Below, one piece after another: positions 1-61,459 of a stretch of 64,000 nucleotides of DNA (within the stretch, counting starts at the first letter, position 1; each line of letters starts with the position of its first letter). Source of the DNA: Psammoneis japonica (Eukaryota). Under the pieces are notes generated by a model. The model was not told the DNA's origin. It ran no database searches and saw nothing but the letters and a program-made list of their open reading frames with translations. The stretch spans positions 1-64,000 of the forward strand of contig QPGO01000141.1 in NCBI GenBank assembly GCA_008632985.1, given 5' to 3'. The position numbers and the translations under genes were made by a program.

Positions 1-2411
1 ACAGCAGTTTGCAGCACAACCACCTTTTGTTGCTGTCAATGTGAGAAAAATGCCCTGCAGTTGCCTGCATCACCAGAGTGCAATGGGGAGAACCTTGCTC
101 CCAAAACAACAGTGTGCCAGCACTGATCTTTAGAGTTGAGAGCTTCCAAGAGAACTGTGCCCTCCAAGCTGCTGTGGATCCTGTTCTCTGCATTGCCAAA
201 GCCAAGGCATGTCAACCTGCGCCAATTTGCAACATGACAAATTCTTCTGCCTTGCACAGTGGCAGCATGGGGGAGAAAGACCTCAACCCACAAAGAGAGG
301 GCCGTTCATCCGAAGTGCCAGGCAGCAGCTCTCTCTTCCTCAGGCACCAAGTCTGCACCATTGGGAGGGTCATCCAACAAGTTTGCTGGAGAACAAACAC
401 CTGCAAAAAACAGAGCAAGAGGATTGATTTTGTGAGAGTTTTGGGAAAAAACATTGTTGGCAGGATCACGTTTGATTCTGTCACCTGGAGCACTGTTGTG
501 TCCAGAAGGTCAGGAAACACAGCACTGCCTGCCTTTGGCAGAAGGAGGCAATCAGCCTGCAATCACAGGAAAGAAGCAAAGGCATTTCGTTCTTGGTTCA
601 TGAAGTTTGGGGTTGAGGGGCCAACTTTTTCCCAAACTTTTGACGGACATCGGCAGCATTGTGTGCTTGTGAATTGACAAGACCTGTTCCCAAACCATCT
701 TTGCAAAGGGACACTCAGAGCAAACACCAGCATCCAGCAGTGGCTGGAAATTCATGGTGTTTGCAATCTCTTGTTTTGATGTAAAACCAAGAGAGAACAG
801 CAGCACTTGACCAACCTTGGAGTTGCTTGCCTCATTGACAAGGTCCGTCTCCAGAGTTGTCATTTCTCTGGCATGTGGGGTCTTTTTCTGTGCAAGGCGG
901 AGAGACTCTGTGGTTTTGTTGGCTTTGGTGATTTTCTTCTGACGGTCAGCTGCCCTGGCCTGAATTTCTTTAATCAGCTTTTTGTTTTGGTGTTTGTGTG
1001 GTCCATGCATTCGCCACATGAAACGCAGCCACATTTTGCACTCCTTGTTGCATTGGCTGACAAATCAGGCAAGTGAGCCACACATTTCCAGCTCACAAAC
1101 TGCCTTGCAGCCAAAAGAAGCAATCCAAACCTTCAGAACAGCCATGATGCATTTGTCTGCTGAATCAAACTCCACATCACCAAGTGGAGGCGGGGAGAAC
1201 TGTTGTCAAAAATGCACTGTGACGGATCTGAGCTCTTGAGAGCTTGCCCAGCTTTTGACACCACACAGCTCCAAGTCACCACATTTGTTGTGAAGTCAGC
1301 CTGATGCTTTGTCTGTGACTTTGCCTTGTTTTGGAATTGCCGTGGCCATTGCATTGCAGAAATGACATTCTTGACAAGAAAAAGTGTTTCTGGGATGCCT
1401 TGCGACAACGGAGACCCTGCAGAACAAAAGAGCAATGCAGAAAGAGACAACACATGCAAGTCAAATGGGTGTCAATGTGTGAAGCCTCAACAAAACACAC
1501 AGCACAAATGGCAACACACAAGGCTGGTCATGATGCAACAGAAGTGACGCTGTCAATGCAAACCTTCAGCAAGAATTTTTGCCATCAGCTGCCCATGTGA
1601 ACCTGTGCGCTCTTGAGCTTGTCACGCACCTTGTGCTGTGACGTAAGACATTCTGTTGAGAGTGCACTGCAAAGCACCTCAGAAACAACTGCATTTTTGA
1701 AATCGGTGAAACGCCATTGTCCGTGTTGTTTTGCGTGTTGCTTTGAGCCGCGAGCCAGAAAACAGCCCCAAAAGTCATCCCACAGGGCAAAATGTGCTGA
1801 ATCAACACAGATTTGGGTTGTGCCAGGCCACGTAGAAAATGAACGGGCCAAGAACTGTGGTGCGCCCACTCAATGACATTGTGATGTGTTTGAGTCTTTC
1901 AAAACATTCAACACTTCAGCAAGTGATGTAAAATGTTGTTTTTTAAAAACAAAAGTGCAGCTTAAAGTGGGGCAGCAAATGAAGTGGATGGATGGATGTG
2001 ATCAAAATTCTGGTTGAAAACAAGTGGTGATGCCCTTGCAGGACACAAAACACAAAAACAATGGCGGAGAACAAGACGACGAGAGAGACATCAGTGGGGG
2101 AGGAAGCGGGGTGGCAGAGAGGAAGGAGGAAAGGTGTGAGTCACAAGGCACGAGACAGGGGGGGGTTTCCCACTTGGAAGGTTGTTTCAATTGTCAAAAA
2201 AAAAAGAAAAATTGGCAGAAGTGACTCATTGTCAAGATTGTGCTCACAATGAGGCTGGTTTGTTTCAAGCATTAAATCCTGCTTGGCATGTTGAAATGAT
2301 TGTCAAAACACATTTGTGCAGCATTGGTTGACCCTTGTCAAGAGAACAGGATTCTTGATGAGAAAGATTGGACTCTGAACAAGAGCAAAACAATGTTTTC
2401 CAGATGACCTT

Positions 2412-2861
2412 TTGAAGCCTCCCAAAATGAAGGAAGATGCAAAGAAGGGAAACATTTCTTTTGTGACTGACTTCTTCTTGAAAAATGAATGTCGTGGTCA
2501 TCCAAAGAAGAAGAAAGCAACATTTGCAATGGATGCTGCCAGCAGTGCTGCCAGAATTGACGAGGCACTTTCTGCGCCTGGGACAACAAACAACCAGTCT
2601 GCCAAGAAGACCGCTGCAGCTAAGAACAATGAGTGCAAGAAGTGCAAGGCTTCAATGGACAGTGGCAAAAGTGATGGGTCCATTGCAGTGAAGAAACTGA
2701 GGATGAATTGGTCCAAGGAGCCTCGTCTGTCAATCATGACGGGCGCAGCGAAGAACAAGTGGCTTGGCAAGAAGGGCCGGCATTGTGACAGAAACAGAGA
2801 AGCCCACTCAATGGAAGCATTGGCCAGTTTAGTTTGCAGTGTTCAGTGTTGTCAAAAATGA
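2412..2861 (+). pseudogene. Degenerate N-terminal fragment of a possible pogo/Tigger-like DNA transposase
   Basis: KKLRMNWSKEPRLSIMTGAAKNKWLGKKG...MEALASLV resembles, from memory, the HTH_psq-like N-terminus of diatom pogo-type transposases; no DDE domain seen. Confidence 0.3.
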
Positions 2862-3584
2862 TTTTGTCCTTCTCATTCTGTTGCAATGCACCTGCACAAC
2901 TTGCCAGCTCTGAGAAGATGTTTTGGACAAAACAGAAATCCATGATTCTCAACGACACACAATGAGACCAACCCAGTGGGATGCATTGTGCAATTGCTCC
3001 CAATGTTGAAAAAAGAAACAGGGAAATTGGCGCAAGCATCATTGAGATGTCATGCCACAAAGTGGGACACCAGTGGCGTGCATCATTGTGCTGTTGCAGT
3101 TTGTTGCATGCAACTTGGAAACACACAATGAACAGCAATGAATGTTGGCAATGCAAGTCACATGAACTTGCATGTTTTGTACAAACACCATGCCACAAAA
3201 AGAACCACTTTGTTTTTGCCAACACAAAAGACACAGAAACAAGCTTTGCAGCCAACGGAAATTCAATGAAGAACAAAAGTGCTCCACACATGATGCAACG
3301 CCTCACAAAACTTTGTTGGAGCTCGCAGCTCATGAGGGGCCAATGTGCTGTGGTCCAATTTAAAATGGCTTGCATTTTCTGCAGCTCACAGCATCATTTT
3401 GACCTGCCTTGGAACACCCCCAAGCACTCATGCACTCGTCAAACCCTCATGGGGGCTGTTGGACGGCTGCAAGAGCTGCACATTTGGCACTTCAAATGCC
3501 ACTTGTCAGCCCATGCCCTGTTGTCAGGTCAAAAAACCCGCCAATTTTTGCTGAAATCGGACTTCTTGTGGGAGATCAGCCACA

Positions 3585-3964
3585 GACAGGTTCCAGCCAT
3601 GGGTGGGACATTTTGTGACATTTGGCTTGTGGAATTCTGCGTGAAAGCTCTGCAGCAAAATTGCACAGCGATTGAAACTCAAACCACTGCCAACAGAAAA
3701 AGAGGCAATTTTGCAAACGCATCTCCTCCTCCACACTTGAAGCACATTGTTGTGTCATGCCTGGGCACGTTCTTCAGACATCAAAAAATGTGCCCCGTGC
3801 ATTTTTGTTGTCACAAGCCTTTGGCTTTGCAAAACAGGCACAGTGTGGAACAATTTTTTGCAACAGAGCACGCAGAAATGTGCACGTGAAACATGCGACA
3901 GATGACAAAAAACATTTTGTCACAGGTCAGAAGTGCATGGTCCCACCCAGAGCTGGAGCGCATC
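3585..3964 (+). mobile_element. MITE copy A (~380 bp, heavily TpA/CpG-converted)
   Basis: Ends gacaggttccagccatgggtggga...tcccacccagagctggagcgcatc match the family TIR; flanks caca/cgca (4-bp TSD with one CpG transition). Confidence 0.85.
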
Positions 3965-3993
3965 CGCAACTTTCTGGGAAATGCCAACAAAGT

Positions 3994-4390
3994 GATGCGT
4001 TCCAGCTCTCGGTGGGACCTTGCACTGCTGCGCTGTGACATCAAGAGTTTTTTGGATCGCATTGCATGTCGCACTTGCAGATTTCTACGTGTGACATTCT
4101 ACAAAATTGTTTCATGCTCCCCATTTTGCAAAGCCAAAGGCTTTCCATTTTCAACATTTGTGAGAATGAAAATGCTCTGGGTGTGTTCTTCAATGTCTGG
4201 AGAACATGCCCGGGCAAACTGTTGATGATGTGCCACAAGTGTGAAGGAGGAGATGCATTCGCAAAATTGCCTCTTTTTCTGTTGGTGATTGTTTGCATTT
4301 CAATTGCTTGACAAATTTGCTGCAGAGCTTGCACGCAGAATTCTACGGGCCCAATGTCACACGGAGTCCCACCCAGGACTGGAACCCGTC
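3994..4390 (-). mobile_element. MITE copy B (converted), inverted relative to copy A
   Basis: gatgcgttccagctctcggtgggacc...gtcccacccaggactggaacccgtc; perfect TSD aagt/aagt. Confidence 0.9.
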
Positions 4391-6380
4391 AAGTGGCGTT
4401 TGACTGGCTGCAGATGAGGTGAAAGTTGTGCATGGTCATGCCTGTTGTTCAAGCATTCCAGGGTGTCTGGGGAATGGACAAAGTTTGACCCATTGCTGAC
4501 TTTTTTTTTGCGAATGCACGCGCATTCGCTGCGGTGCATCCAGGTCATTTTTGTGAAAATTGCAAGCTCCCAAAAAACAGACTGCAACACGCAGATCCAT
4601 CCTCAAATTGCACTGCACTCTAACAAGACTCGCGTTGGTGTTGCAACGTCATTGTTTTTGTGCTGTCAATGTTTTTCATTGCAACAAACAAATCATGACT
4701 CAACGGATGATTTTCGGTGAAATGGTTGCTGTCATTTGGATGTCAAATTAAACATTTTTTCTGCAGGACCTTCCAGGAGGCACTCCACTTGCAAGCAAAA
4801 ATGCGTGTCCAATGCACTTTTGTGCAACCAGTGTTGAGTTTGCTGGGGAAGTTTGTGACACATGTCCCATGAGGACTCAAATGCCAACAAAAAAATTGTT
4901 TAGATGCACATGCTCTAGACACCTGCAAAAGCCCATCTGCACAAGTGTTTTGCATTCAAGTGCTCCATGCATGAGAGATGCACAACCAACGTTCAAAATG
5001 GAGTGTCATTTTGTGCATCACCTGGGACTGGAGCACATCAAAATCAAAGCAGCGCCAAAGCAAAAGAGTGGCCAGCACAGGAGCACTGTGCAAACTTGTC
5101 ATTTGAACAATCAAAGTTGACAAACAACTGCAAATTGATCATCCCTGCCCAAAGGTTTGGGTGCTTTGCTTGGGATGGCCTGCCAAGCATCCTTGCAGAG
5201 CGATTTCTGACCATGCTGCCTCAAGCTGGGCAACACCCCCATCTTGGGGCAAACAGAGCCAAGCGCCAGCCCGGCATTGTGTCTCACCTTGAGACAGCCA
5301 TGGACACAAAGGGCAGCACCAAAGCATCCCTTTCACAGCAACAAAAGGAAAATCACAAGCTGTGGGACCTCAGTGATGAGGTCAATTTGGCCAAGCTCTG
5401 CAGCCCATTGCAAGACAGCTGCCTGCAATGTTGCTCTTCATGGCAGCGTTTGTCTGGCATGAGCTCAAGCCCAGCACATGTGTGCAACCCAGAAGCTCAC
5501 AGTCAGCCAGAGGACCTTGGCCATGAGGTTGTGTGCTGGGGGTGTGCAACTGAAGCAGACTTTGTCTTGAAGCAACAACCCAGCTCCTCAAGCTCATTTG
5601 TGGCACAGCAAAGTGGTGTGGACATGCTGTCTCCATGCACCGCTGTGTGCACATGCAGCAACAAAGCCTGCCCCTTCAGGTCCAACTTGTTCCTTGAGCT
5701 GCACATCTGGGTCACAGCCACCAGGCACATGATTGCCATCCAAGGCAGTGCACGTGGAAGGCCAGGTGGTGGTTTGCAAAGGATGCAGCTGTGCCCTCAA
5801 GGTTGTGCAGCACTTGCTTGCTGACAGCACTCTTGGCAGCACCTCACCCAAACTCATGACAAAAGCAGTGGCTGCATTTTGTTGCACAAGGCAGTGGCAC
5901 AAAGTTGTTGTGCAGAGAGTCATGCTCAGCCATTGGCTGCAGCTTCTGTTGCCAGGGCATGATTGCCAGCTGCTGGCTGGTCAAGAAAGCTTGGTGCCAT
6001 GGCATGTGACTCCCTGGCCACTGTTTGGCTGTGGCAGGTGGTGATGAGTTCATGCTCCAGGTGGGACCGCACACTGCTGCTGGGCTGTGACATGAGAGAT
6101 TTTTGGTCATGTGCCATGGTGTGTGGTGTTCACATGCATCTGCACCTTTCTTGTCATGTCTGATCTGCTGTGTTGCTCAAATCAGCAATGGTGGGCACAT
6201 GACTGGAAAGGTTCTTGGGGCAACCACAGTGCAGGTCTGTTGCTTCCATGTTGCTCTGGTCACCTTGACAGGCATCTGGAATGACTTGCTTTGCTCCAAT
6301 GTGCCGCGAGACTCAATGGCAGTGCTGTGACCCAACTGAACAAACCTGTCTTCAGAGGCTGAAGCCACAACCTGCACTGT

Positions 6381-6622
6381 CTCAAACAGCTCCAAATGGA
6401 CAAAGAAAGTCCAAAATTACAAGGAACACCTCATGAGGTGAACACGACACAGAGACACAACCAAATGAGTGTGTGGTCAACCACAACTTTGATGCCCTGG
6501 CACCCCTGATTTGTCTGCACCCATGGAGGAGAGAGCATGGGAAGTTTGTCACCACAGACACACAAGAAAATGTCAATCGCTGCAGGAAACTCTAGATCCG
6601 CATGTTGCCACAAATGACACGA
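6381..6622 (+). repeat. ~200-bp dispersed repeat, copy 1 (second copy at 10698-10892)
   Basis: ctcaaacagctccaaatggacaaagaaagtccaaaat...ctagatccgcatgttgccacaaat is shared with 10698-10892. Confidence 0.85.
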
Positions 6623-9344
6623 ACTGAGGCTGCAACTTCATGTCTGTTTCAGCTGGTGAAAACTGCCGTTTTCATCATCACCTCCTGACAATTTTGCTGC
6701 AGAGCTCATGTGCAGCAATCCACACAAAAGTGTCACACAGAGCCACACCTCTGGGGCTGTGGTGTTCTCTTGGCAATGTCATGCAATGGCAGCTCAAGCT
6801 CTTGCTGGTTTGCTGTCTTGCTGGTGCCCATCCTGTGACTGTCTCCTGCTGCTTTGTCAGCAGCAAGCAGCAAAAACAAGAAAAAACAGCAAGTCCTGAG
6901 ACCCTGCGCATTGAAAAAATGTGGAAAGCAAAGTGCTGGCAAAAGCAGCTGCAAATTGTGCTGGTTGAGAAATGGTTTTGCAGAGCCGTTGTCAGCCTCA
7001 ATCTTTGCCATCACTTGGCGCTCATCTCTGAGCTTGGTGGGAGGTGGGAGCTTGGCTTTTCTCAGGTCTGGAGCTCAGGGCTGTGAAGATGAGTGCTGTT
7101 TTGTTGCTCCACTTGTGTCATTGCATGTTTGCAAACCATCATTGCAAGAAGTGTGAGCTTCTCTCCTTTGCCCAAGACCACATGAAAAGGGGAGAGCAGG
7201 CGACAACCGCGACGTGGCATGACGTGAGCGTGACATGTCAATGACGAACCATGTGACAATGCAGCATGTGGATCACGCACAATTGGGCCAGCAGTTTGGT
7301 GGCTTTCTACGTGGCCTGCGCAAGTTGAAGTGAAACGTCATCATGCACGCCTGCCAACCACTCAAATTTTCAAAAAAACTCCGCACAAATTCGTGCTTTC
7401 TCAAACCCCTCACCCAGTGCCTCCTGGCATGACGAGAAAGTGAGGGACCTGCATCCTTTTTTAAACTGAGCTCCCAGACACCCTCCTGGATGACACACCG
7501 AAAAAGGATGCAGGAGCACAAGGAGGAAGATCTCATTTCCACGGAAAAAGAGCATGTGCTCTCGTTTCTTCACGACATTGCATGAAACTTATGATGCAGC
7601 GCATGCTTTGGTCTGACATGGTCCAGCACCTGCCCTGGCAGTCTAGCGCATTCATTTGGTCTTCAAGACGAAGTGTGGATGCGCTTGTTGGGCGATTTGG
7701 GTCTGATTCAATCTTTTGTTGCGAGGAGATCTCTTGAATGACGCCTCATTGCTTGAGCACGTGTCTGCACTCATTTGCTCCAACATGGACAGCAAAGGGG
7801 AGAGAGAGCCCAAAGATGGAAACCAGACAGCCAACATGCCGTGCCATCCATTGTTGACAAGAATGATTGCAAACACTTGTCTCGTGCAATGTTCCGTTGG
7901 ATGACTCGGGTGTGTTGCGCAACTTTGCATTTTGCCAGACATCACATGACTTCAAAACTGCATGTCGCTCACAAGCAAAAAATGGCAAGGCACTGCAAGA
8001 CAAGGATGTTGTGTCCGAAGTGTTGAAGCGACATTGGATGAAGCCATCATCAGACAGTGACCCATTCAAAAACCAGAGAGCAGCCATTGACGACAAAAAG
8101 TCTTTGGTGTGTTTGTTCTGCACTCCCATGTTGAGACTGTTCTTTGTGGAGAGAGCAACCTTTGCATCTGTGATTTCATTGCAAGAATGCATTCACCGGT
8201 GTGGCAGGGTTTGTTCACGCCTGAATCTACGTCCAACCAAGTCAATCCCTTTCTGACTCGTTTCCAATCCCTGTGTGTGTGGCAAGTTGACTGGGCATTG
8301 TGCATTGAACCCAGACAGCTCTCAATCATTCCGTCTCAATTGACAAAATTGACGTGCAATCGACAATGAGCTTGATTGACATTCTCTGCATGTTGCTGCC
8401 AATCCAGCTGATCGGCCCATGCACTGCAGGCATTGCCAATCACATCTGCACAAGTTGGATCCCATCAAAAGAAGACATTGAAAAATGTGCACCAATGGAA
8501 ACCAAAAGGGACCCCCATCTTTTCTCACAGAACCGCTGCCGTCATGTGGGTCAATGCACGGACAAGTTCAATGAACGGCGCAAATGTTTCTTTTTCAAAA
8601 GTGATGTCAAGCTGAAGCGGGTGTGGCAGCCCAAGCTGCAAGGGAAGAGGCCAGAAATTGCATCTTCGAGGGCTGCAAGACAGGGAGGCCAGTTCTTGAA
8701 GATCCCTCAGTTGCACTTTGCACTGGCCGAGGGAACATCAATTTAGCCAGTGCGCAAACAATGACAACATGTTGCATGAAAATGCAAGCCAACAATGTGC
8801 GAGGCAAGACGCGGCCCCAACGACATTGTTGGACCGTGCCATTGTTGCTCAAATTCAGTCCAGAACTCACGAATTCAAAGCACAATGAAGAGAAAGTAAC
8901 AGCAAAGGACAACAAGAGCGAGACTCTTGTGCACCCACATCGTCAACACTCAACACGGCCAAAAGAACAAAAATCAACTTGTGTTTTGCGCGTCTCATCA
9001 ATTGACACACTTGCTTCTTTCCTGATTACTGAGAAACACACTGTGAGCAATGTCAGTGTCGCTGTCTCCGACGGGCTGTTGTGTGGTTGTGTGCCCTTCG
9101 AAGCAGCTGCCGAGTGACGAACGCAAACGGAATCATTCAAAGCATGTCATTCATTGTGCTGGCTGTTGGCCCCACTGTGTTCTCCCAGCATGAGCGAGAG
9201 CACAAAGCACTGAAATGGATCAATGTTGAAAAGTGCCGCGAAAATGCGTGACTTTCTACGCACGCAGCAAACATGCCAACAATCGGGGTGCTGAACGCGC
9301 GAAATGCACGTGGATGTCGACACAAACTTCCGACATTTTTTACC

Positions 9345-10367
9345 ATGTCGGCGGCGTCCTCGTCGGTGGGTTCGACATCTTTGTTGAGGTTCTTGTCGGA
9401 CGATGGTGTGAGAACACTGTTGGCGGGATGCATGACCACAAGCGGCGTCTTGTGTGGCTTGGGCCTGGAACACGCCATTGGACGCTGCGGCTTGGTGAAA
9501 AAGGCATCAGACGCCTTTGTGCTGGTGCATTGCCTCTTCACACTCTTGGCATGGCCGCTGCTTCTTCTGATTGGACTGTTGTCTTTCAGTGTTTTTGGGT
9601 TCCCTTTTGCCGTGACAGGTTTGTTCAACGGCGGCATTCCATTTCTGTTGTGCGACTGGGCTCTGTTTAAAGACTCCGGCCGTTCAAGAACAGCACGACT
9701 GTTGAATGCTGGGAAATTGTTTGGAAGTGCACTGCATCACTCAGCATTCTTGCTTGTTTGCAGTTTGATTGCCGTGCACCAAGTGGATCCCAATCGCCAC
9801 CTCCTGTCTGCTGGTGTTCCACTGCCACTCATGCACGTTTCGGCACTGCTGGAGGAGGTGTGGCCAGTGGCATGTCATTCCTTGGTGATCCTTTCCGAAG
9901 TTTGGTTTCAGTGTGAAGCCTTTGCCGCCCTGCCCACCCAACCTAGCGAAATGCAGGTGGCCTTTTACATGATGATTGTCGCACACTTGGTGTTCTTGTC
10001 GAGTGTGGGTGCCTTGATGCTTGTAAGCAAGTTGGTGAGTGCAGAATGTAGATTCGCGCGATTGTGTCTCTGAATCATTCCATGAACAAGAGTATATCTA
10101 AAACGTGCGTTTACTTTCACCCACCAGGACCCTGATGCCACAATTGTGCAACATGGTGGATCCAAGCATTGCGTTCTCAGAGTCAAGCACTGTCTACGAG
10201 CAAGAGAGAGTGCGGAAGATTCACACTCTCTTGACAAGAACAAAAACGACACAGATATAGACAACAACGCGTTGACCAACTCGGCATGCTCATACTCGAA
10301 AAACAACACTCCTATCTTCGACCAAGAAGCAAACATGCCTGCCGTCGTGGTCCATGACACGCATTGA
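9345..10367 (+). CDS. Multi-pass membrane protein of unknown function, 2 exons (intron 10035-10127); frame open but apparently recoded by TpA conversion
   Basis: Hydrophobic ORF 9345-10034; GTGAGT donor and CACCAG acceptor join it in frame to the 10146-10367 ORF; exon 1 has only one Tyr, near its 3' end. Confidence 0.6.
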
Positions 10368-10697: not shown

Positions 10698-10892
10698 CTC
10701 AAACAGCTCCAAAATGGACAAAGAAAGTCCAAAATCACAAGCAAAACCTCATTAGGTGAACGCAATACACAGACACGACAAAAAAAGTGTGTGGTGGAGG
10801 AGAATAGCAGGGGCGAGTTTGTCACCACGGACACAAAACAACATATATGCCACTGTAGGAAACTAGATCCGCATGTTGCCACAAATAAACGA
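10698..10892 (+). repeat. ~200-bp dispersed repeat, copy 2 (retains more TpA)
   Basis: Aligns with 6381-6622, e.g. cactgtagga vs cgctgcagga. Confidence 0.85.
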
Positions 10893-30680: not shown

Positions 30681-30692
30681 TCACTGTGCACT

Positions 30693-45150: not shown

Positions 45151-45153
45151 GTT

Positions 45154-48949: not shown

Positions 48950-48951
<2 letters not shown>

Positions 48952-48984
<33 letters not shown>
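48952..48984. repeat. (GA)n microsatellite
   Basis: Visible GA run. Confidence 0.9.
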
Positions 48985-48986
<2 letters not shown>

Positions 48987-49812: not shown

Positions 49813-51813
49813 ATGAGAGCGATGAGAGCAGATCATAGCATTGTAAAATCGCCTCTTGTTCTGCTGCTGTTTCTGCTGGGGGCAACAACTGCGATTTTTG
49901 CTGCCTCCAGAAACACCTTGTGGTTGGCAGATGCCTTTGTTCTTCCAGTCAACGCAAGATGCTACGTTCAACCATTCAATACGCATGCCTGTCGCTCCTT
50001 TCATACTTCCTTTGATACAATCTGCCAACAGAGACTTTACCCAGATCGCAGACGAGTATTGTATATGTCAGGATCATCCATGCAGGATTTGGAACAAATG
50101 ACGGTCCAACAACTCAAACAATTAATCAAGGATTCGAATTTAAATGAGCGAGGACTCATGACTCGTCTCAAACGCAAACAGGATCTGGTTGATTTCTTGT
50201 ACGAAAATTTATCCGATCGAGAAGAAGAAGAGCAGCAACATCAGGATGAAAGCAGGAGTAATGATACGACAACGATGAGTCATCCAGCAGCACTCGATTT
50301 GAATGGATTTACGGAAAGTACCAATAGTGACAGCAACGATGACTATGCTGTACCAAATGATTTGAGCTATCAAGACTATGTGGAACGCTTTGAAGGATTT
50401 CTCGCAAACATTGACCCAAAGAAAACAACCGTCACCGAGGTTCAGCTCCGTCAAGAACACGCACAAGCGGCGTTTGATGAAATGTATGAATCCTTTGTGT
50501 TTGGATCGGAACATTTGGAACCACAAATTGACATTTACAACCTGTTGATTCGAGTCTATGGGATTCCGATCCAACCAAGGCCCGAAATGGCACAGTTAAT
50601 TCTCGATCGAATGGAAAGCTCTGCAACAACAACAAACGAAAAAGGCGATGCCAGTACTCCGTCCATTCCGTCACCCAATATCGACTCGTACATTCACGTC
50701 ATGGAGGCATGGGCTCATGACAACAAGCCAGAAATGGCAGAAGAAGTGTTTGAACGCTTGTCACAGCAGCCATATTTACAAGTCAACACGGAAGTATACA
50801 ATACACTCCTCAAAGCTTGGCTCAAGAGTCGGGGCGACGATATTGAGGCCATCAAGGCGGCAAGGGCTGAATCCATTCTTGATGAAATGCTAAAAGGCTA
50901 CAAAGAGGGTAATGCGGCGGTAAAGCCCACTGTCAAAACATGGGAACGAGTCATCAAGTGTGTCGCATCGGAACGAACGGACGATTCAACCGAACGAGCG
51001 TTGGAATTGTTGGAAGAACTCAAAGACATGGCACAAGACGATCCTACTTCTCCTGCTCCCAATACAGACGTGTACAATGCCGTGATTAGTGCCGTTGCCA
51101 AGAATCGCGACGCATCCAAAGAGCTTCAACAACGCGGATCCATGGCGGAGAGTATTTTGTATGACATGATGGACGAGTACAGAGACGGCAAAGTCGAGGC
51201 ACGACCCAACGTTGGTAGCTTTATCAATGTCATTCATGCCTACAGAGGATCACCGGACACCAAAGCAGGCATAAAGGCCGAAAAGCTATTGGAACTCCTG
51301 GAAGGCATGTCTGCAAAGGAACAAGACGACGCAATAACGGATCTTGAGCCTAACGACAAGATTTACAATGCAGTCTTGGATGTGGTGGGACGGACGCGAG
51401 ATCCAACAAAGTCGCTTCGTGCCCAACGCATCTTGAACCGCATGGTGGACCATAACGTGACACCGAATGTGCGGAGCTACAATGCCGTTCTGAATGCTTG
51501 TGCTTTTACATGGAGCAAAGATCCAAAGCAATTGATGGATGCCTTTCGAGTAGCAGTCGACACGATGAACCGCCTTCGCTCTTCATCTACGACCCTTGAA
51601 CCCGACGCTGTGTCATATGGGCTCTTCCTCAAGAGTTGTGCCCAGCTCATGCCACCCAACTCGAAACGAGACGCTGTGGTGGAGACCATGTTTCTCAAGT
51701 GCTGCATGGACGGAAAAGTGAGTGACTTTGTACTGCAGTCTCTTGCCGATGCGACGACACCACAAATGTACAGGAAGTTGACGACTCGAAATCAAAAAAG
51801 GAAAAACGGGTAA
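49813..51813 (+). CDS. Pentatricopeptide-repeat protein, probably plastid-targeted, with N-terminal SAP/Rho-N-like helix pair
   Basis: PNxxxYNAVI/L repeats; presequence ending LADAFVLP; LEQMTVQQLKQLIK...KRKQDLVDFL. Confidence 0.9.
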   Translation: MRAMRADHSIVKSPLVLLLFLLGATTAIFAASRNTLWLADAFVLPVNARCYVQPFNTHACRSFHTSFDTICQQRLYPDRRRVLYMSGSSMQDLEQMTVQQLKQLIKDSNLNERGLMTRLKRKQDLVDFLYENLSDREEEEQQHQDESRSNDTTTMSHPAALDLNGFTESTNSDSNDDYAVPNDLSYQDYVERFEGFLANIDPKKTTVTEVQLRQEHAQAAFDEMYESFVFGSEHLEPQIDIYNLLIRVYGIPIQPRPEMAQLILDRMESSATTTNEKGDASTPSIPSPNIDSYIHVMEAWAHDNKPEMAEEVFERLSQQPYLQVNTEVYNTLLKAWLKSRGDDIEAIKAARAESILDEMLKGYKEGNAAVKPTVKTWERVIKCVASERTDDSTERALELLEELKDMAQDDPTSPAPNTDVYNAVISAVAKNRDASKELQQRGSMAESILYDMMDEYRDGKVEARPNVGSFINVIHAYRGSPDTKAGIKAEKLLELLEGMSAKEQDDAITDLEPNDKIYNAVLDVVGRTRDPTKSLRAQRILNRMVDHNVTPNVRSYNAVLNACAFTWSKDPKQLMDAFRVAVDTMNRLRSSSTTLEPDAVSYGLFLKSCAQLMPPNSKRDAVVETMFLKCCMDGKVSDFVLQSLADATTPQMYRKLTTRNQKRKNG

Positions 51814-52039
51814 TGGTTGGAGCCGCAAATGGTGTTTCCGACTAATCGCTAGGCAATTTTTTATTATTAGATGTATCATTGATTGGACCGAAAGTGTCTA
51901 AAACGATTTGTGTGGGTAGGCTGCTAACAAAGACAGGGGTGCATCGTCATCGAAATAATTGCCAAAGAATGCTCTAATCCATCGCATTGCGCTTAAACGG
52001 CAGCACTTGACGATTGATCAAAAGCCAGAGAGCTGATAC

Positions 52040-53400
52040 AAACTTGCCACATGCCAAGAGGACAAACAAGTCTCGACAGACACACTCAAAGTCTCAATGG
52101 ACATGTTCCAATCAGTCTTGAGCACTCTAGCATGACTGGCACAACATGAATGCTCATTGGGCCTTGCACCATTGATGCACATTTGGTGACTTGTCCCTGT
52201 CCTCCCCCCCCTCTCCTCAAACTCACCAGTCAATCTCATGAGCATCCAGCCACACTCACCATGATTTGTTTGGCATGACTTGCACAACAAATGTCTTCAT
52301 CGGCACCTGTGCCATCAATGCATCTGGCCACTTTGACAACATGAACAGACAAGGGCAGTTTAAGACAAGTGGCACAGGTCATGCTCTTGAAGGTGAAATT
52401 GCATCTTTGATGGGCTCCAGCAATCAAAACTCAATTCTTGCAATGTTGATGTTGGCTTGTTGGGCTTGTGACAAACACTTGCAAATGCTCAGAATGGCTT
52501 GGAGAATGGGCCCACAAAAAAATCACAGACAATGAGCCACAAGCACATTTTGGCCCGGAGCAGCACAAGGTCTTTCTTTTGTGCCACTTCACCTGCAAAG
52601 TGGTGGCTCTTGTGCTGTTTTGTTGGATTTTTTCCACCTTGGGCAGCAGGGAGGGGTGTCATCAACCAAGCTGGTCAACTCATGAGCTTCAGCTCACAAA
52701 TCATGCACAAACTTGTCAAGGTGGTGCACAGGATTGTGATCTCAAAAATCTTTTGAAGAGGAGCTTCAACACACCTTTTTGGTGGAAGTGTTGTGGCCCT
52801 TGCCAAGCCCCAGTGGGTCACTTAAAAAGTTGTCTCTGTGCTGCATGGCCCAGTGACAACGCACCCAAGGAAGTGGGCCAGCACAACTGCCAAGACTTTT
52901 GTCTTCATCTCTCACCTCCAGCGCTGAATTTTTGTGACATTCTGCACAGGCATTATGCAGGAACCTGAACTGTCTCTCTCAGGTGTGTGACATCTTTTGT
53001 GCAAAGAAGCCAGCATTTTCTGTTGTTGGCAAATGAAGAAAGTGGGTTGGGGCCGCAGCAGCAACAAGGAAAAATGCTCATTTGGGCCATTTGCCATTGT
53101 GCATGTTGGGTCTTGTATGCAGGCCAGAGCTGCCGGCTGTGCAGCATCACTGGCTTTCATCATGTCTGCAGCTCCACCCATGCTTCTTTCACAAAGAAAA
53201 TGTCTCCGCTTGTGACTTGCACTCCCTCATCATGAAAGCTGAGTTTTGAGTTGCACAGTGTTCTGCCCACAAAGGTCCACTGTCATGCAGGGCCTGTGAT
53301 CCCGCATTTGTCCATAAAGACACACAGGTTTCAGGGAGCTTGACAGATGGGATGAGAAGGCAGATCCAGGCCGCATCAGCAAAAGCCATTGATTTTGAAG
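52040..53400. other. TpA-depleted hypermutated domain
   Basis: Few TA; TG/CA-rich. Confidence 0.8.
52128..52536 (-). pseudogene. TpA-converted fragments homologous to the GT11-like gene at 62175-63053
   Basis: DEDICCASHAKQIMVSVAGCS and NEHSCCASHA vs intact DEDFYYASHAQQIMVSTGGYS. Confidence 0.9.
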
Positions 53401-53688: not shown

Positions 53689-56010
53689 ATGATGAGTGGC
53701 TCCTACGAAAACGACGACGACAAGACGTGCGAAGTAGACAGTGATGGGGGGTTACTCGAATCTCATATCTTATCTTCACCAAACGCCTCTCCCGTACGAG
53801 TAATCGGTCGTGTAAGGCTACTCGGCGTGATGGTGGCCTTGGCTCTCCTTGTATTGCCCCCTCTCGAGAATGGGGCAATGGCGCAAGAATGCGTCGCATC
53901 TGTTCCTTCGAATTTTAAAGATCTTCCTCAGTTCGTCGACGAAGACCTTGACCTTGACGGCTGTTGCCTCCAGGACCCCGTAAAGAGGTGCACCGACTTG
54001 GAATTTTGCTTTGGAGTCATGGCATCGCACCCAACGGCATTTCACCACGGCTGTTGCGATGTCTTCCCCAGTTGTGGCTCGACTAAGCATCTCAACAAGA
54101 CGCTGGACAAGCTACAGAGATTTTCCTTGGCTGATCTCATGATTTCGGTCTTCATTTTCATCTTGACTATCCCGCATGTGTGGTTAGAATGCGCTGCGGA
54201 CAAAGCCGCGAATCAAGAGAACGAAACCAGGAGAATGTCGCTGGTGAAATACACTGCCATACTCACAGCAATCATTCTCATTCTTGAGATGGCTGATTTA
54301 GCCGTTAGTGCAGCAATTATATCTACGGTGCGAACCGCCGACTCTTATGGAAACATTCCATCCGACACGGCGGATAATCTCGTCAAGGCAGAATGCTACC
54401 ATGGAAACCGGGACGAATCCAATATCGATAAAATTTATGAGCAGTTGGTGCAGTTTGAAAAGCTTCAAATCGTGGAGCTGTCCTTTGAATGTGTTTTGGT
54501 TCTGTTGCATATTGCGAAGATTTGGTGTCTACACAAACGACCGAATACCGGGCAACAGCGAGAACAGGGAAGAGAGTTGGGAACAACGGCATCTACATAT
54601 GTCGGGGATACCATGGAGTTGATTCTGGCAGCAATTGCGTATGCAATCCTTCTTGAGACAACCCGAAGTTTCGATGAAATTTATCACGACATGACAAATC
54701 AGACTGCACCCAATGTTTGCATTCATACGTGTTGTTTTATTTCTGCTCTGAAGCTGGTTCCTTCACTGACTCCGACTACTCTCTCGCCCAGTAATGGCAC
54801 CATATCAGAAAAAGTCAGCGGATTGAAAATGAGGTTACTTGGTGTAACGACCGAGTTTGACGGCGCAGACTCGGACTTGTGGACGAGTGAGACCAAGGAT
54901 TTTGTCGAGGGCTATTTTGGCAATGCTCGCCGGCACACACGCAATTTACAGCTCGTCACCAACGTTCAAGATTTCAAAACCACATTGGAGGTAACAAACT
55001 CAACTATCGTGAACGGCGACAGTGGCAGTGATGATTCCTTGGAAATCACGTACAATCAGGCTGTCACGCATACAAGCAAGGTCAAAGTTTCGATCAGGAC
55101 CTTGGTAACTGAGCCGTTCATGTCTTCGGCTAACAAAGTGGCCTACACTGACCGCCTAAAGGCCGCAGGTGCCACAACAGGAAATGATATCTTTGCTAGT
55201 CTGATCGGAATTAGCCAGTTGGTGTCGGAAACAGAGATACCTACTCGCCCTCCGTCGATAAATCCATCACCACGTCCGACAAGCAATCCTGCACCACCCC
55301 CATCCATGCCACCTTCTATGCATCCATCAACACCTTCCCCGTCAAAACAACCTCCTGTGCCAACGCCCCTTGCACCCGTGCCACTTCCCACACTTCCGCC
55401 AACGCCTTTTCCATCCAAGCCACTCCCGACTCCTCCGCCTTCGCCATATCCATCCATGCCAATTCCCACCCCACCGCCCACGCCATTTGCAACGAACCCT
55501 CCCACTCCGAGACCTTCAAGAAATCCCACCCCGCCTCCAACACGCCCCCCTACCCCAAAGCCGACCAGAAATCCGACCAGAAATCCTACTAGAGATCCGA
55601 CCAGAAATCCAACTAGAGATCCGACTAGAAATCCGACCCGACGACCGACAAGATTGCCCACCCCGGATGGCCAACAAGCAACACTCCAAGCTACCTGTAG
55701 TAACGGGTACAAGGTCACCGGATCTTCCGCCAACGCAGTTGCCAATGGAGGAGTAACTGCTGGCGGGCAGACTGTTTCATGCGGAGAGCCATGGTGCCAA
55801 ATTAGGGGAGGCACATATACGTGTGAGATTAGGTGTGGCTCTGTCTTTATTCAAGGAATTCTACGACCATTGAATCCGGACTCTTCGTGTCTACCAGGTG
55901 GTGAAACATGGTTCTGGACAGTTGGAGGAAGTCAATGCGTAGACGAATGTTTGGAAACATGTGCCTCAGGCACAACGTACACTGATTGCAGGTTGGGAAA
56001 GCGAGGATAA
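53689..56010 (+). CDS. Multi-pass membrane protein with Cys-rich segments, SEA-like domain, Pro-rich/PTRN-repeat stalk and Cys-rich tip
   Basis: Long ORF; several hydrophobic helices; PTRNPTRD repeats; start codon uncertain. Confidence 0.85.
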   Translation: MMSGSYENDDDKTCEVDSDGGLLESHILSSPNASPVRVIGRVRLLGVMVALALLVLPPLENGAMAQECVASVPSNFKDLPQFVDEDLDLDGCCLQDPVKRCTDLEFCFGVMASHPTAFHHGCCDVFPSCGSTKHLNKTLDKLQRFSLADLMISVFIFILTIPHVWLECAADKAANQENETRRMSLVKYTAILTAIILILEMADLAVSAAIISTVRTADSYGNIPSDTADNLVKAECYHGNRDESNIDKIYEQLVQFEKLQIVELSFECVLVLLHIAKIWCLHKRPNTGQQREQGRELGTTASTYVGDTMELILAAIAYAILLETTRSFDEIYHDMTNQTAPNVCIHTCCFISALKLVPSLTPTTLSPSNGTISEKVSGLKMRLLGVTTEFDGADSDLWTSETKDFVEGYFGNARRHTRNLQLVTNVQDFKTTLEVTNSTIVNGDSGSDDSLEITYNQAVTHTSKVKVSIRTLVTEPFMSSANKVAYTDRLKAAGATTGNDIFASLIGISQLVSETEIPTRPPSINPSPRPTSNPAPPPSMPPSMHPSTPSPSKQPPVPTPLAPVPLPTLPPTPFPSKPLPTPPPSPYPSMPIPTPPPTPFATNPPTPRPSRNPTPPPTRPPTPKPTRNPTRNPTRDPTRNPTRDPTRNPTRRPTRLPTPDGQQATLQATCSNGYKVTGSSANAVANGGVTAGGQTVSCGEPWCQIRGGTYTCEIRCGSVFIQGILRPLNPDSSCLPGGETWFWTVGGSQCVDECLETCASGTTYTDCRLGKRG

Positions 56011-56011
56011 A

Positions 56012-56485
56012 GGAAAGCTCTGCAAGAAACGAAAAAGGGGATATCAGCACTCCTTTTCCCCTCACCCAATATCGACACGTACGTTCATGTCATGGAGGCG
56101 TGGGCTCATGATAACACGCCAAAAATTGTTGAAGAAGCGTTTCATCTCTTTTCCAGCAACCATATTTACAGGTCAAAACGGAACTATAATCCTAAAAGCT
56201 TGGCTCAAGAGTCGGGGAAACGATATTACGAAATCAAGGCGGCAAGACTAGAAAGAAAAAAATGAGGCGGTAAAGCCTACTCTCAAGACATGGGAACGAG
56301 TCCTCAAGTGCGTCGCATCGGAACGAAACGACGATTCCACCGAACGAGCTTGTTGGAAGAACTCAAAGACATGGCACAAGACGATACTATTGATACCGTG
56401 GCTCCCAATACAGATGTGTACAGTGTCGTTATTAGTGCCGTTGCCAAGAATTGCGACGCATCCAAAGAACCGCACCAACATCTCA
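56012..56485 (+). pseudogene. Fragmentary copy of the PPR gene (source ~50612-51130), not TpA-converted
   Basis: ggaaagctctgcaa...tcacccaatatcgac...aaagcttggctcaagagtcgggg...ttggaagaactcaaagacatggcacaagacgat are shared. Confidence 0.92.
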
Positions 56486-57796: not shown

Positions 57797-58749
57797 TGTC
57801 GTTTTGGTTTCGTCAAGAAAGACGAAAAGCTTCTCTTCTTTGATTGTAGAACGCTTTTTGTGTTAAGTCGCGAATTCAAAGTTTGAATTCAGCGATTCTT
57901 CTCAAGTTCACTCAAATTTCAAAAATAAAAATGTGCCTCTCATTCACGATGGCCATGGCAATTCAATGACGAAGCCAAGTCACAGACACAGCATCAGGAA
58001 GAGTTCACAACAAACATGGTGACTTGGAGCCATGACATCTTAAGCTTGGTGAGCTCTCAAGAGCAACGGTCCATGGTGATGCGGGGTTTGATTTGGCAGA
58101 CCAGTGCATCATGGTGGCTCTAAAGGCATGGATTGCTTCTTTTTCAGCTGTGAGGCAGTTTACAACCTAGAAACATGTGGCTTGTTTGCCCCATTTGCTG
58201 GCCAACACAACAAATTTAGAGGGTGAAGGATGGGACAAATGGGCCATTGTGTCAAGTCTCAAAAGCAGCTCAAGAGTTTCAGCCAACAAGAATCGTTGGC
58301 TTTGCAATTTGTCAAGTGAGTGCAGAGTGCATGCGTTGGGGCACCACATTTCCATTGTTGTTCCAGAGGGAACAGCAAATGGTGTTGATGTGGCTGATCA
58401 TGCAGCTGACATGTGGGTGCACCTTGACAATCTGTTGCACTGCAGTCTGAGATTGTGAAGTGAAAAGAACAACAACTTCAGTTTGCATTGTTCCATCACA
58501 ACAGAAGCACACAAGCTTTCCCTGGCTGTTTTGGGGCAATCAGGCAAGTGACAGAGGAGCTGCAGAAAGATGCAGATGACACCATTTTGATGCATGGTTG
58601 TCACGTGGTGTCATCGTGAGTTGCTGATGGGCATGTCATGCTTTCTGTTTTTGCACTGCGTCTGTGTGGGAATGTGCGTGCATGGCTCTTGTGTGTAGCT
58701 TCTGTGCAAAAAGTGCATCAGGCTCTCTCCAGATCGCCCTCTTAAGAGA

Positions 58750-59529
58750 CTGGAGGTGGGTGACATCCAAATTGGCAGCACTGTGTTTTTTTTCCCAAAA
58801 AGCACCTGAGTTGGGTGTGAAACATGCTTTCTCTTCAAGATGCCATGGCTGTTTTCTTCACCTCCCAAAAGTGCATCTCTGTCATCAAAAAGCTGTGCTC
58901 ACACGCACTCCTGGACAAGACTGTTGCCATTGAAGTGGACATCAATGAAGTGCAAAGCAAACCCACAGGTCATGTTGACCATTTTGGGTTTGGCTGTCAA
59001 AGTTGTGGTTTGTCAGAGTCAAGCCATTTCACATGATCTTTTCCAGTCAACAACATTTGTGTTTGTGTGGAGCAACATTGGTTGTTTTCAATGAGACCAC
59101 TGCAATGGCAAAACTGTGACACAGCACCCCAAGACATTGTTGCCCCACACAACTCTGCACATGGCTCGCCAACAATCCAGGGCACCTGCGGCTCTTTGGA
59201 GGAATGACAACAAGCTGAATGAGCGTGATCATTTTGTTGTCACTCTCTGGATCACAAAAATGGCAGGCTGCAAGGAAACATGGGCTGACTTTCAGCATTC
59301 CTTTGAATCAGTTGCAAAGAGTTTCATCAATCAGCACACATTTGTTGGAGATGACCAAGCAGCCCTGCAATCAACTTGTCTTCAACACCCAGACATTTGT
59401 GAGCACGTCATTCCTTTTGACCAAGTCAAGGACAACAAGCACTTTGGTTTGTGTTGTGTTGTCATTCACAATGGTGGTGATTTTGCAAACAAGTGGAGTC
59501 CACTGCCAGTGAACAAAACAGTGCAATGA
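58750..59529 (+). pseudogene. Degenerate HtrL/YibB-like gene
   Basis: MLSLQDAMAVFFTS...KKLCSHA; DLFQSTTFVFVWSNIGCF; FVGDDQAALQSTCLQHPDIC...HFGL resemble HtrL-like motifs (from memory). Confidence 0.5.
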
Positions 59530-60539
59530 GGACAATGGAGTCATGTGAGAAGAAAGCAGATTCAGGCAAAGAGAAATGCAATCACTGCATTTAAAAAAAT
59601 GATTGAAATTGGCCATTGCATTGGAGGCGCTTCTCAGAATTGACCTTTCTGAGGCAAAAAGATGACTCAGTGTGGCCATGATGACAAGGAAGAAAAGGTC
59701 ACATCTTTGCAAAGCAAGCGCACAACTGTGTGCACAAAGCAGCACGTGCTTTTGGATCTGTTGGCTCAAACTCTTGATTTGTGCACTGTGGGTGTCATTG
59801 GCAAGAGAGTCAAACACCTCTGCCTCACCAGAAGTGTTGCGACGCCACCGGGAAAGACCAGCTGCTTTCTGCATCATGGCCAACCAAAAGACTGGTGAAA
59901 CACATGTGCACACAGAGCCCAAATGTTGCAGCTCACTTGCCCAAGTCCAGTCAGAAGCACAAGCAGAATTCTCACTTGTGCATCCCTTTGCAAAAAACAA
60001 CTGCACCAATGTGACAGCATTGGAGCCAGACTTGGAAATCAGCCCATGGCACTGCTCTTGCTGTGCAACAGCAATCCTGCTCTCAGTTCATTTCACAATC
60101 AGGCACACAAATTGTGACCCTGCAAATGGGGTTCCAGCAGCAATGTGAACTCTTTTTTAGTCATGCTTGCCAGTTGTTGAGAGGATGATTTGAACTCTGC
60201 CTGATGGCCAATGGCAGTTGCAAGATGCGACACTTGTCAAGACTGCGGCCAAGCGCTCATGCTCCAACGGGGTTGAAGAAAGCCAGAGCAAAAGTCAACA
60301 ACACCCAGAGCCAGCACATGAAGAGCCACCTTGTTTGCAATGACACGACAAATCTCTCACATTGCTGCCGCAGTGTGATGCCATGCATTGGCACCCCACT
60401 TTCCACAAATGTGTGCACATCATTGTTGTCAGCACAAGATGCCTGAATGCAAGTTGCCATTTCTTGCAGCTCAGCAGAACCACTGGACGCCAACTTGTTG
60501 TTTGCATTTTGCAGACAAAAGGCATGACATGATTGACAA

Positions 60540-61178
60540 ATGTTTGTGCGGGGGCTCAAGACGTCTTGCAAGTCATGGCTGTTGTTGTCAGTGCTCACGG
60601 TGACACAAGGAGGGGGGCTGCAATTTTGTTTTGGGTCACAGACAAGACAGACGTCACAAGACAACATGAGAGGCAATTTCAACACGCTTGATGACAAAAT
60701 GGATCCCTCTGACATTTCAGTTGAGATTGAAGAGGCCCACAGCCCATGGGCAACATGATGTGCTGGACACAAGTCCCAGTTGGGCGTGTCTGAAGATGCC
60801 TTTCACGTTGAGGCACACCGAGTGGGACGGCATTTGTTTTGTGTCACCAACAATGACCGGCGCTGCAATCGGACGGTGGGCCTTTCTGTCAAAGCAGCGG
60901 TGCCACCTCCTGCTGTGGACCCCAAAGTGGAAGAACCGGATCAAGATCATGCGGCCGAACTGTTGGAGTGGTCGGAAGAAATCTTGGATGACTGGGACAT
61001 GTTGGCAGATCACTGTGAATGCACAAAGCAATGAGAAGTGCAGCATCGCAACTCATTGGAGCAAATCTTTGAACATTTCATTCAGTGGACTCTCTTGGAA
61101 GCCATCACATTGATTTGCATTGCCACGGTGCAAGTGATTCATGTCAAAAGGTTTTTCGAAAAGAAAAGGCACTTGTGA
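60540..61178 (+). pseudogene. emp24/gp25L/p24 (GOLD) cargo-receptor pseudogene
   Basis: One frame of 213 codons with two TGA stops; DHCECTKQ*EVQHRNSLE and tail WTLLEAITLICIATVQVIHVKRFFEKKRHL match p24 with Tyr->Cys/His. Confidence 0.88.
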
Positions 61179-61459
61179 TTTGTTCAATGGTCAGGGGATT
61201 TGTGTGAGAGAGTTTGTGTGGTTTGAGTCAGACAGACATTTACATGCTGTATGCGTGGCGTCAGGCAGACCTTGTGGCACAGATAAGACAAAACAATCTG
61301 TGGCAAGCACTAACATGTGTTAGCTCAAGGCTTGATGCACACACACACACACACTAGAAGCCTTCAGTCTTCTTCAATATTCTTGTTTGCTTTACAGCCA
61401 TTTGTTGAGGCTCTGTTTTTGTTCAGGAAAGTCTACCATCATTGAATGTCGGTTTCTTC

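Follow-up and report, generated by a model that had tools for sequence, protein, structure and literature searches.

The 64,000-nucleotide stretch of Psammoneis japonica DNA analysed here (assembly GCA_008632985.1, contig QPGO01000141.1, positions 1 to 64,000 of the forward strand; hereafter the window) alternates between gene islands of normal composition and sharply bounded blocks in which the dinucleotide TpA has nearly vanished and CpA and TpG have accumulated. These blocks probably record a real hypermutation process that is directional, specific for TpA and restricted to domains, and that is of the same kind as one recently described in the chlorarachniophyte alga Bigelowiella natans. 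The case is thus a second, phylogenetically distant and much more extreme one, and it is not categorically new.

Observed/expected ratios (o/e) of TpA, CpG, CpA and TpG were computed in 1-kb windows (n = 64). TpA o/e falls below 0.12 in 25 of the 64, and several stretches of 1-1.5 kb contain no TpA at all. Nine depleted blocks, pooled, comprise 29,858 bp, or 47% of the 64 kb, and hold 102 TpA (o/e 0.05), against 1362 TpA (o/e 0.57) in the remaining 34,142 bp. CpG is likewise scarce in the blocks (o/e 0.36 versus 1.01 outside), while CpA (1.76 versus 1.23) and TpG (1.75 versus 1.21) are enriched. ApA stands at 1.26 inside and 1.15 outside, and the G+C content is nearly equal (48.5% in blocks, 46.9% outside). 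Arithmetic on the dinucleotide counts places the deficit at about 1030 TpA and about 1130 CpG and the excess of CpA plus TpG at about 1990, so that the losses account for the gains. Across the nine blocks TpA o/e lies between 0.03 and 0.10, with CpG o/e spread from 0.14 to 0.57. As an outside control, 352 kb of metagenome sequence from 67 diatom-like loci were cut into 607 windows of 1 kb, among which the minimum TpA o/e was 0.32; these loci surround relatives of an MFS transporter encoded in the window and lie on short, gene-rich contigs, and hence offer no proof of absence from other diatoms.

The first-pass annotation of this DNA, made from the letters alone, had proposed eight sharply bounded blocks separated by normal gene islands. 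The depletion, its restriction to domains and the TA-normal state of the islands are all borne out by the 1-kb windows and by the sharp edges, and the limits need small corrections. Block 1 (1-9990; TpA o/e 0.053, CpG 0.38) runs off the start of the window and contains a mutated palindromic pair of miniature inverted-repeat transposable elements (MITEs) at 3585-4390. Block 2, formerly drawn at 16.6-18.4 kb, is depleted from 17180 to 18400 (TpA 0.096, CpG 0.47), its supposed first part up to 17.18 kb being a TA-normal MITE. Block 3 (20720-26100; TpA 0.041, CpG 0.32) carries gene fragments in mutated form, the TA-normal counterparts of which are found at 15922-16304 and 19022-19103. Block 4, once extended over 28.0-31.9 kb, occupies 27980-30690; TpA o/e is 0.05 up to 30455, the terminal segment at 30456-30690 combines a TpA o/e of 0.0 with a CpG o/e of 0.83, and a fully mutated MITE copy lies at 29758-30115. 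The sequence further on, at 31.1-32.0 kb (31090-32000), is merely intermediate, with a TpA o/e of 0.21, a normal CpG o/e of 0.94 and a word depth of 1100-3300 in X1, a public DNA sequencing run considered below; it may be a partly mutated or an intrinsically TA-poor repeat. The block placed at 40.3-45.1 kb is depleted as claimed and is interrupted by a TA-normal MITE (40971-41359), which leaves blocks 5a (40200-40965; TpA 0.10, CpG 0.39) and 5b (41365-45090; TpA 0.044, CpG 0.27). Block 6 spans 47620-49170 (TpA 0.032, CpG 0.57), block 7 spans 52000-53400 (TpA 0.075, CpG 0.14) and includes at 52244-52497 a mutated copy of the normal sequence at 62240-62488, and block 8 spans 57900-61245 (TpA 0.047, CpG 0.27). 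Edges are abrupt, within a few bases at MITE ends: TA density switches at both ends of the MITE at 40971-41359 and at 17178.

The MITE family reveals the direction of change. Its members, of about 390 bp with terminal inverted repeats, form two subfamilies and occur in both TA states. The copy at 16790-17178 (minus strand) is TA-normal and abuts block 2, where depletion begins directly at the MITE end. Also TA-normal are the copy at 40971-41359 (plus strand), inserted within a depleted block between 5a and 5b, and a second-subfamily copy at 30692-31084 (plus strand), which serves as an ancestor proxy for the mutated head-to-head palindrome of block 1. The copy inside block 4 was polarised with two TA-normal copies as outgroup. 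Its ancestral TpA positions number 32, and 15 of them have changed, 8 by T>C and 7 by A>G, which amounts to about 15 of 16 dinucleotides. Changes affect 6 of 32 CpG positions and 12 of 231 other positions (about 5%), the last being no more than in TA-normal copies. A summed X1 word depth of about 123,500 over the bin 16668-17334, against about 60 for single-copy sequence, marks the family as very high-copy, although the depth itself is not a copy count. The exact 23-base terminal motif of the MITE had no match in metagenome contigs.

The same direction emerges from pooled pairs of TA-normal and depleted sequences, which comprise the MITEs and fragments homologous to 15922-16304, 19022-19103, 10698-10886, 61886-62488 and 30747-30905, every depleted site being taken once. 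The 133 ancestral TpA in these pairs correspond to 53 CpA, 41 TpG, 5 TpA and 34 other dinucleotides in the depleted copy. Among the sites that read TA, CA or TG there, 94 of 99 differ from the ancestor by exactly one A>G or T>C transition. In the normal-versus-normal control, 133 TpA correspond to 71 TpA, 13 CpA and 11 TpG. Both the polarised MITE and the pair counts (94 of 133 converted, 5 kept) therefore uphold the original claim that TpA gave rise to CpA and TpG and not the reverse. The examples offered for it can also be traced: the MITE pair and its CCTAGG sites, altered to CCTGGG or CCCAGG, are present in the MITE alignment, and the peptide FYYASH (62271-62288, minus strand) differs from ICCASH (52275-52292, minus strand) by two TAT>TGT changes. 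The TA-normal homologues at 15922-16304, 19022-19103, 10698-10886 and 62240-62488 are untouched in the same window. In repeat pairs of which both members are depleted, a CpA in one copy faces a TpG in the other at 13 of 97 sites and at 9 of 91, versus 6 of 240 in normal-normal pairs, as would be expected if the copies, once duplicated, had each lost the TpA or CpG of their common ancestor separately.

Sequence context narrows the target further. Between normal and depleted copies, A>G per adenine reaches 17/64 at TAA, 48/77 at TAC, 10/41 at TAG and 23/67 at TAT (0.24-0.62), whereas adenines without a 5' T change at 0.04-0.17, the same as in the normal-normal control (0.03-0.15). TpA specificity is thus confirmed, with a clear excess over any general AT>GC bias. 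T-A-Y (Y, pyrimidine) is changed in 71 of 144 cases versus 27 of 105 for T-A-R (R, purine; p = 2e-4). The flanks of surviving TpA agree with this preference: TTAA makes up 31 of 102 in the blocks versus 66 of 1363 in normal DNA (p = 9e-15), and estimated survival rises from 0.0 for ATAT and 0.02 for GTAC and for ATAC/GTAT to 0.18 for CTAG and 0.54 for TTAA. Together, these observations point to R-T-A-Y as the optimal site and Y-T-A-R as the resistant one. CpA and TpG are balanced in the blocks, their counts being not overdispersed at any of the scales used (250, 500 and 1000 bp; p 0.07-0.17, chi2/df about 1.2), and the two outcomes alternate irregularly along the mutated MITE. This suggests that either strand was targeted site by site, with no strand-coordinated runs. 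Gene islands show overdispersed CpA/TpG, as coding DNA should.

CpG depletion within the same blocks had been under-reported in the first-pass annotation. C>T is raised solely at NCG (0.20-0.45 versus 0.14-0.18 in the control); elsewhere it is at or below control, and CpA shows no excess. Among 118 CpG in the normal-versus-depleted pairs, 61 became TpG (34) or CpA (27), 33 were kept and 24 changed otherwise. Flanking bases matter here as well: YCG is changed in 34 of 84 cases versus 27 of 135 for RCG (p = 0.002), and survival is lowest at TCG (0.26) and highest at GCGC (0.98). The loss is most simply explained by deamination of 5-methylcytosine, and it resembles the CpG decay of methylated repeats in that the C>T excess of the blocks is confined to CpG and limited to the repeat domain, which may be methylated. 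The strong depletion of TCG also recalls the TCG-biased process of basidiomycetes that resembles repeat-induced point mutation (RIP) (PMC3318451). Decay driven by 5-methylcytosine covers only the CpG half of the pattern, however; it is unable to remove TpA and would create TpA from CpA and TpG. Since TpA loss is equally complete where CpG loss is strong or weak, the two can be separated, and TpA disappears faster than CpG.

The first-pass annotation knew of no description of such a process, but one exists. In B. natans, TpA-only A:T>G:C hypermutation has been reported in viral insertions (Mettrop et al., bioRxiv 10.64898/2026.01.13.699255), and our literature search returned no other description of TpA-specific hypermutation. 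In mutation-accumulation lines of that alga, two viral insertions take 231 of the 302 nuclear point mutations; of these, 230 are A>G or T>C changes, and TpA is the site in every case. They arise in some lines only, at about 6e-7 per site per generation, which is about 1000-fold above background. The giant-virus insertion is reported to be transcriptionally silent, and expression of the virophage insertion to be like that of other such insertions. The lines are asexual, and the giant-virus region that undergoes hypermutation is present only once. [quoted passage not shown] Its main text makes no mention of CpG, of flanks beyond the dinucleotide or of diatoms; the supplements, which lay outside our search, may hold flanking-base data relevant to the T-A-Y preference.

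With the cut-offs of that preprint (Rho TpA <= 0.43, Rho CpA+TpG >= 1.52; bioRxiv 10.64898/2026.01.13.699255), 29 of the 64 1-kb windows qualify, in four clusters of at least three windows. Both systems display A>G or T>C changes at TpA, giving TpG or CpA, confined to discrete regions; the blocks carry a CpG-specific C>T excess as well, which the preprint does not describe. Despite this likeness, the two cases differ in several respects. B. natans is a rhizarian, whereas the host here is a diatom-like stramenopile. The blocks are saturated, with a TpA o/e of 0.05 versus a Rho of 0.45 in the active giant-virus region, and the depleted 47% of the window contrasts with 124 clusters in B. natans, of whose genome the callable 85 Mb make up 90%. 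Among the sequences mutated here are copies of the MITE and fragments of host pseudogenes, but clear viral genes are lacking, and both the CpG co-depletion and the T-A-Y and R-T-A-Y preference have no mention in the main text of the preprint. Finally, the B. natans rate was measured directly, whereas the window offers a footprint, with an indirect figure of about 15/16 TpA versus 5% of other sites from one MITE.

These features are best explained by a single course of events. The blocks are probably non-genic DNA, made up of repeats in decay, copies of the MITE, fragments of pseudogenes and possibly remains of viruses, and a domain-restricted hypermutation has probably driven them to saturation, with T:A giving way to C:G only where it belongs to 5'-TpA-3'. 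Read from the adenine side, this is A>G, best at T-A-Y, with the palindromic R-T-A-Y as the optimal site. Each TpA would be struck once, on either strand with equal chance, to become CpA or TpG, after which it would no longer be a target. CpG in the same domains would decay to TpG or CpA more slowly and to a variable degree. Both self-complementary pyrimidine-purine steps would in this way converge on CpA/TpG, which would keep G+C constant. The agent may be a DNA-acting adenine deaminase of the TadA/ADAT2 type; if the process itself is granted, we give adenine deamination by such an enzyme about an even chance.

Several properties of this enzyme family fit the proposal. In the tRNA substrates of TadA and ADAT enzymes, U precedes the target A34, in keeping with a 5'-T requirement, and the tRNA-Arg substrate of TadA presents U-A-C, matching the T-A-C optimum found here (48/77). 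Natural or evolved enzymes of the TadA/ADAT2 fold, among them the TadA-derived adenine base editors, deaminate both A and C in DNA. The footprint is also akin to those of ADAR and APOBEC enzymes, as deaminase-driven clustered transitions directed against selfish nucleic acids. ADAR, however, acts on double-stranded RNA, tolerates a 5' U or A and leaves strand-clustered changes in RNA-derived elements, whereas here ApA is not depleted, strand patches are missing and a DNA transposon copy has been mutated in place. The C>T changes at TC or CC that characterize APOBEC are likewise absent. Among ADAT2 proteins, amphioxus BjADAT2/3 deaminates both A and C in DNA, and BjADAT2 expressed in E. coli favours GAA when it acts on adenine and TCG when it acts on cytosine, the latter echoing the flank bias of CpG loss in the blocks (PMC10354150). 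Trypanosoma ADAT2 is cited as a DNA-editing deaminase in the B. natans preprint (bioRxiv 10.64898/2026.01.13.699255). A bolder version, which we regard as a long shot, would assign both halves of the pattern to one 5'-T-dependent DNA deaminase of the TadA/ADAT2 fold guided to silent chromatin, which would carry out A>I at T-A-Y as well as C>U at (T/Y)-C-G. Such an enzyme would represent an ancient genome defence common to Stramenopila and Rhizaria, and some 50% of the non-genic DNA in this region would have been altered by it in the present diatom lineage.

The main alternative to adenine deamination is a modification on the thymine side, which we consider unlikely as it stands. The thymine of TpA in silent chromatin would be modified by an enzyme, for example hydroxylated by a dioxygenase of the TET/JBP type to 5-hydroxymethyl- or 5-formyluracil, and would then mispair with G at replication and give T>C. 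Since TpA is self-complementary and its flanks are equivalent, sequence cannot separate A>G from T>C on the opposite strand. The proposal has precedents: TpA is the preferred location both of base J, in the telomere repeats of kinetoplastids, and of dinoflagellate 5-hydroxymethyluracil, and T>C mutations are induced by 5-formyluracil. Yet conversion of about 95% of sites calls for a lesion that mispairs very efficiently, the window shows no dioxygenase domain, and a single literature search gave no report of such a base in diatoms, the papers listed being all on dinoflagellates.

As to what marks a region for mutation, targeting by silent chromatin is favoured over targeting by homology because normal homologues are untouched. 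It is doubtful that sequence duplication, and not chromatin state, is the trigger, as in a true RIP analogue operating in a sexual or pre-meiotic phase. The blocks do hold repeated material (MITE copies, duplicated gene fragments and internal direct repeats), X1 word depth is 2-4.5x single copy over 20.0-24.0 kb and 28.0-29.3 kb, and the independent CpA/TpG outcomes in depleted pairs place mutation after duplication. However, the TA-normal homologues of mutated fragments in the window have escaped, and the very high-copy MITE is TA-normal in three of six aligned copies or arms, the palindrome arms being counted separately. The giant-virus region of B. natans, moreover, is hypermutated as a single copy in asexual lines (bioRxiv 10.64898/2026.01.13.699255).

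The likeness to ascomycete RIP is accordingly functional only. Both processes are saturating, transition-only and dinucleotide-specific, act on non-genic DNA within sharp limits and destroy coding capacity. Their chemistry and direction are opposite: RIP converts C:G to T:A, turning CpA into TpA and enriching TpA and A+T, whereas here TpA is erased and G+C is unchanged. The duplication rule fails as well, since RIP mutates both duplicates and normal homologues here are intact. The label 'inverse RIP', under which the pattern was first described and linked to silenced or repeated DNA, is thus right about direction but loose about the target.

It is quite unlikely that the blocks arose with no dedicated mutator, from a slow, context-dependent bias of mutation or repair in heterochromatin, for instance in TpA-lesion repair or polymerase behaviour, acting for a long time on unselected DNA. 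The age of the blocks would suit such a bias, as they have lost recognisable coding capacity (136 open reading frames (ORFs) with one Pfam match; two empty homologue searches), and they have also undergone CpG decay, which itself works slowly in this manner. The mutated MITE, however, with about 15/16 TpA changed versus 5% of other sites, implies a TpA rate at least tens of times background. TpA loss is also equally complete where CpG loss is small, and the edges at MITE ends are sharp within a few bases. TpA removal must, in addition, outpace by far the re-creation of TpA by C>T at abundant CpA and TpG.

A sequencing artefact, in which a modified base at TpA and CpG is miscalled within the domains while the real DNA has TA and CG, is very unlikely. 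Methylation-linked transition miscalls are known from nanopore data, and the platforms of the assembly and of X1 are not on record. X1 contains 85% of the sampled words of 20001-30000, and its contigs, built from 31-letter exact words at a depth of about 60, show 0-3 differences from the blocks per 0.4-3.5 kb. Exact-word depth of this order would be what accurate polymerase-read data give, and the reproduction of the blocks in exact words argues against miscalling. A miscalled symmetric site should, moreover, yield a mixed or TA-creating consensus, but TA is absent. The TA-normal MITE within a block and the mutated MITE differ only in a mutation-type pattern, and the pseudogene carries a coherent codon change, TAT>TGT. 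The question of a miscalled modified base, which the first-pass annotation had raised itself, is thus largely answered, subject to the missing platform record.

At positions where the window reads CA or TG, higher-depth paralogous X1 contigs show TA or CG. Six single-copy letters differ between X1 and the window in the long pieces listed; all six fall in about 5.2 kb of block sequence, whereas the gene islands covered, about 8.4 kb, are free of differences (p = 0.003). They lie at 17907, 18080, 18184, 25387 and 28415-28416 and comprise four cases of CpG versus TpG/CpA and one CpA/TpG double change; heterozygosity, drift of the strain or decay that is still going on could account for them. Another run of that sample, X2, is not on record as RNA, and neither is any other run listed; X2 covers only gene islands in 16-36 kb, and the missing cover proves nothing.

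Little in the blocks is recognisable as genes. Pfam searches of 19 long ORFs, and then of 136 ORFs of at least 90 aa, recognised no transposase, reverse transcriptase, integrase or capsid or other viral hallmark. The sole match above cut-off among the 136 is a RusA-like (Holliday-junction resolvase) ORF in block 3 (22609-22995, minus strand), and it is weak (E 4e-5; 24.7 bits versus a cut-off of 22.8). A match to FST_N (E 7e-4) lies below cut-off, and the remaining matches have E >0.005. A direct repeat of about 250 bp (22776-23026 and 23132-23381) lies next to the RusA-like stretch. The RusA-like ORF had no match in a word-indexed homology search, and a 283-aa block ORF had none in a full HMMER search of 1.84 billion representatives. 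Plus-strand stops in the blocks number 735 TGA versus 50 TAA and 24 TAG; with TAA and TAG largely gone, hardly any stop but TGA is left, so that long ORFs are expected, and the longest, of 307 aa, is within chance (simulated mean maximum 280). ORFs of at least 200 aa are in excess (14 versus 5.75 +/- 2.35 simulated), a weak hint of old coding frames. As possible foreign targets, mutated MITE copies are present and viral identity comes down to one RusA match, and copies of host gene fragments are mutated as well. That the blocks are viral or introgressed DNA, intrinsically poor in TA and CG, is most improbable despite the weak RusA-like ORF (E 4e-5) and the viral targets of B. natans, since host MITEs and copies of neighbouring gene fragments were converted in place while their homologues outside were not, and none of the 136 ORFs was recognised as a viral hallmark gene.

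A number of points weigh against a TpA-specific, domain-restricted mutator of the B. natans kind that acts by adenine deamination. The evidence comes from a single 64-kb window. The 'ancestors' used for polarity are TA-normal paralogues of 67-87% identity, and about one quarter of the aligned TpA sites carry other changes. The TA-normal MITE at 40971-41359 implies that the process is not continuous over the whole domain or that it spares recent or short insertions; it may represent either a later insertion or an immunity of short new inserts. Deaminase, dioxygenase and methyltransferase domains were found in none of 58 ORFs of at least 110 aa in the TA-normal parts of the window. The GAA preference of BjADAT2 (PMC10354150) does not match TpA. 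The one weak RusA-like match is the only hint of viral ancestry here, compared with the viral targets of B. natans, and as the main text of the preprint lacks any mention of CpG, we can only infer equivalence with the B. natans process. X1, for its part, has no platform on record and is only probably the source sample, the sample being common to two smaller runs.

The gene islands are filled by long, nearly uninterrupted ORFs, with helicase-associated (HA), VDE lipocalin, PPR, FG-GAP, protein kinase and MFS transporter domains. The MFS ORF has 380 relatives at E <= 1e-10; every named best match comes from a diatom, but with 45-56% identity these are not close relatives. Together with the domain content, this fits a diatom or near relative as the source. 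B. natans itself is not the source, since no near-identical protein was found and its genes are intron-rich. A homology search with the VDE-like protein returned none at E <= 1e-10, and Rfam and tRNA scans of the 64-kb window found none. The kinase gene (14442-16094, minus strand) and the MFS gene (37663-39229, plus strand) each consist of two adjacent ORFs with a gap of about 10-25 bases, which could be a very short intron or a frameshift. Behind the MFS gene lies a TA-normal tandem array of units of about 215 bp (39143-39745). TA-normal dispersed repeats of 250-520 bp occur at gene ends (50610-51133 with 56009-56479; 55828-56080 with 61400-61657). The segment 61661-62571 is a further TA-normal repeat, and an ORF with internal repeats occupies 62178-63092. 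Two FG-GAP repeat genes, at 32819-34027 and 45131-46350, are paralogues with 67% DNA identity. The second abuts a block and has a TpA o/e of 0.34 versus 0.56 in its paralogue, with normal CpG; TpA>CpA/TpG differences number 9, versus 3 in reverse, too few for calling mutator leakage.

Domain-specific chromosomal conversion of A:T to G:C at one dinucleotide opposes the near-universal mutation bias from G:C to A:T. The first report, in 2026, concerned one rhizarian alga, and a saturated footprint in a diatom-like genome means that the process is not a single-species curiosity. To that report the present case adds a sequence motif, a constraint of strand symmetry and new classes of target. The motif, with R-T-A-Y optimal and TTAA resistant, and the strand symmetry constrain any candidate enzyme. 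Comparison of gene content could find that enzyme among deaminase or dioxygenase paralogues that are common to both lineages and absent from footprint-free diatoms. A natural DNA adenine deaminase, if such it proves to be, would be of interest to the base-editing field, and if a single deaminase accounts for the whole pattern, it would be a natural, double-strand-symmetric A:T>G:C editor. A process of this kind can reshape a large share of a genome, erasing tyrosine codons, TAA and TAG stops, TATA-like elements and the TA and TTAA targets of transposons.

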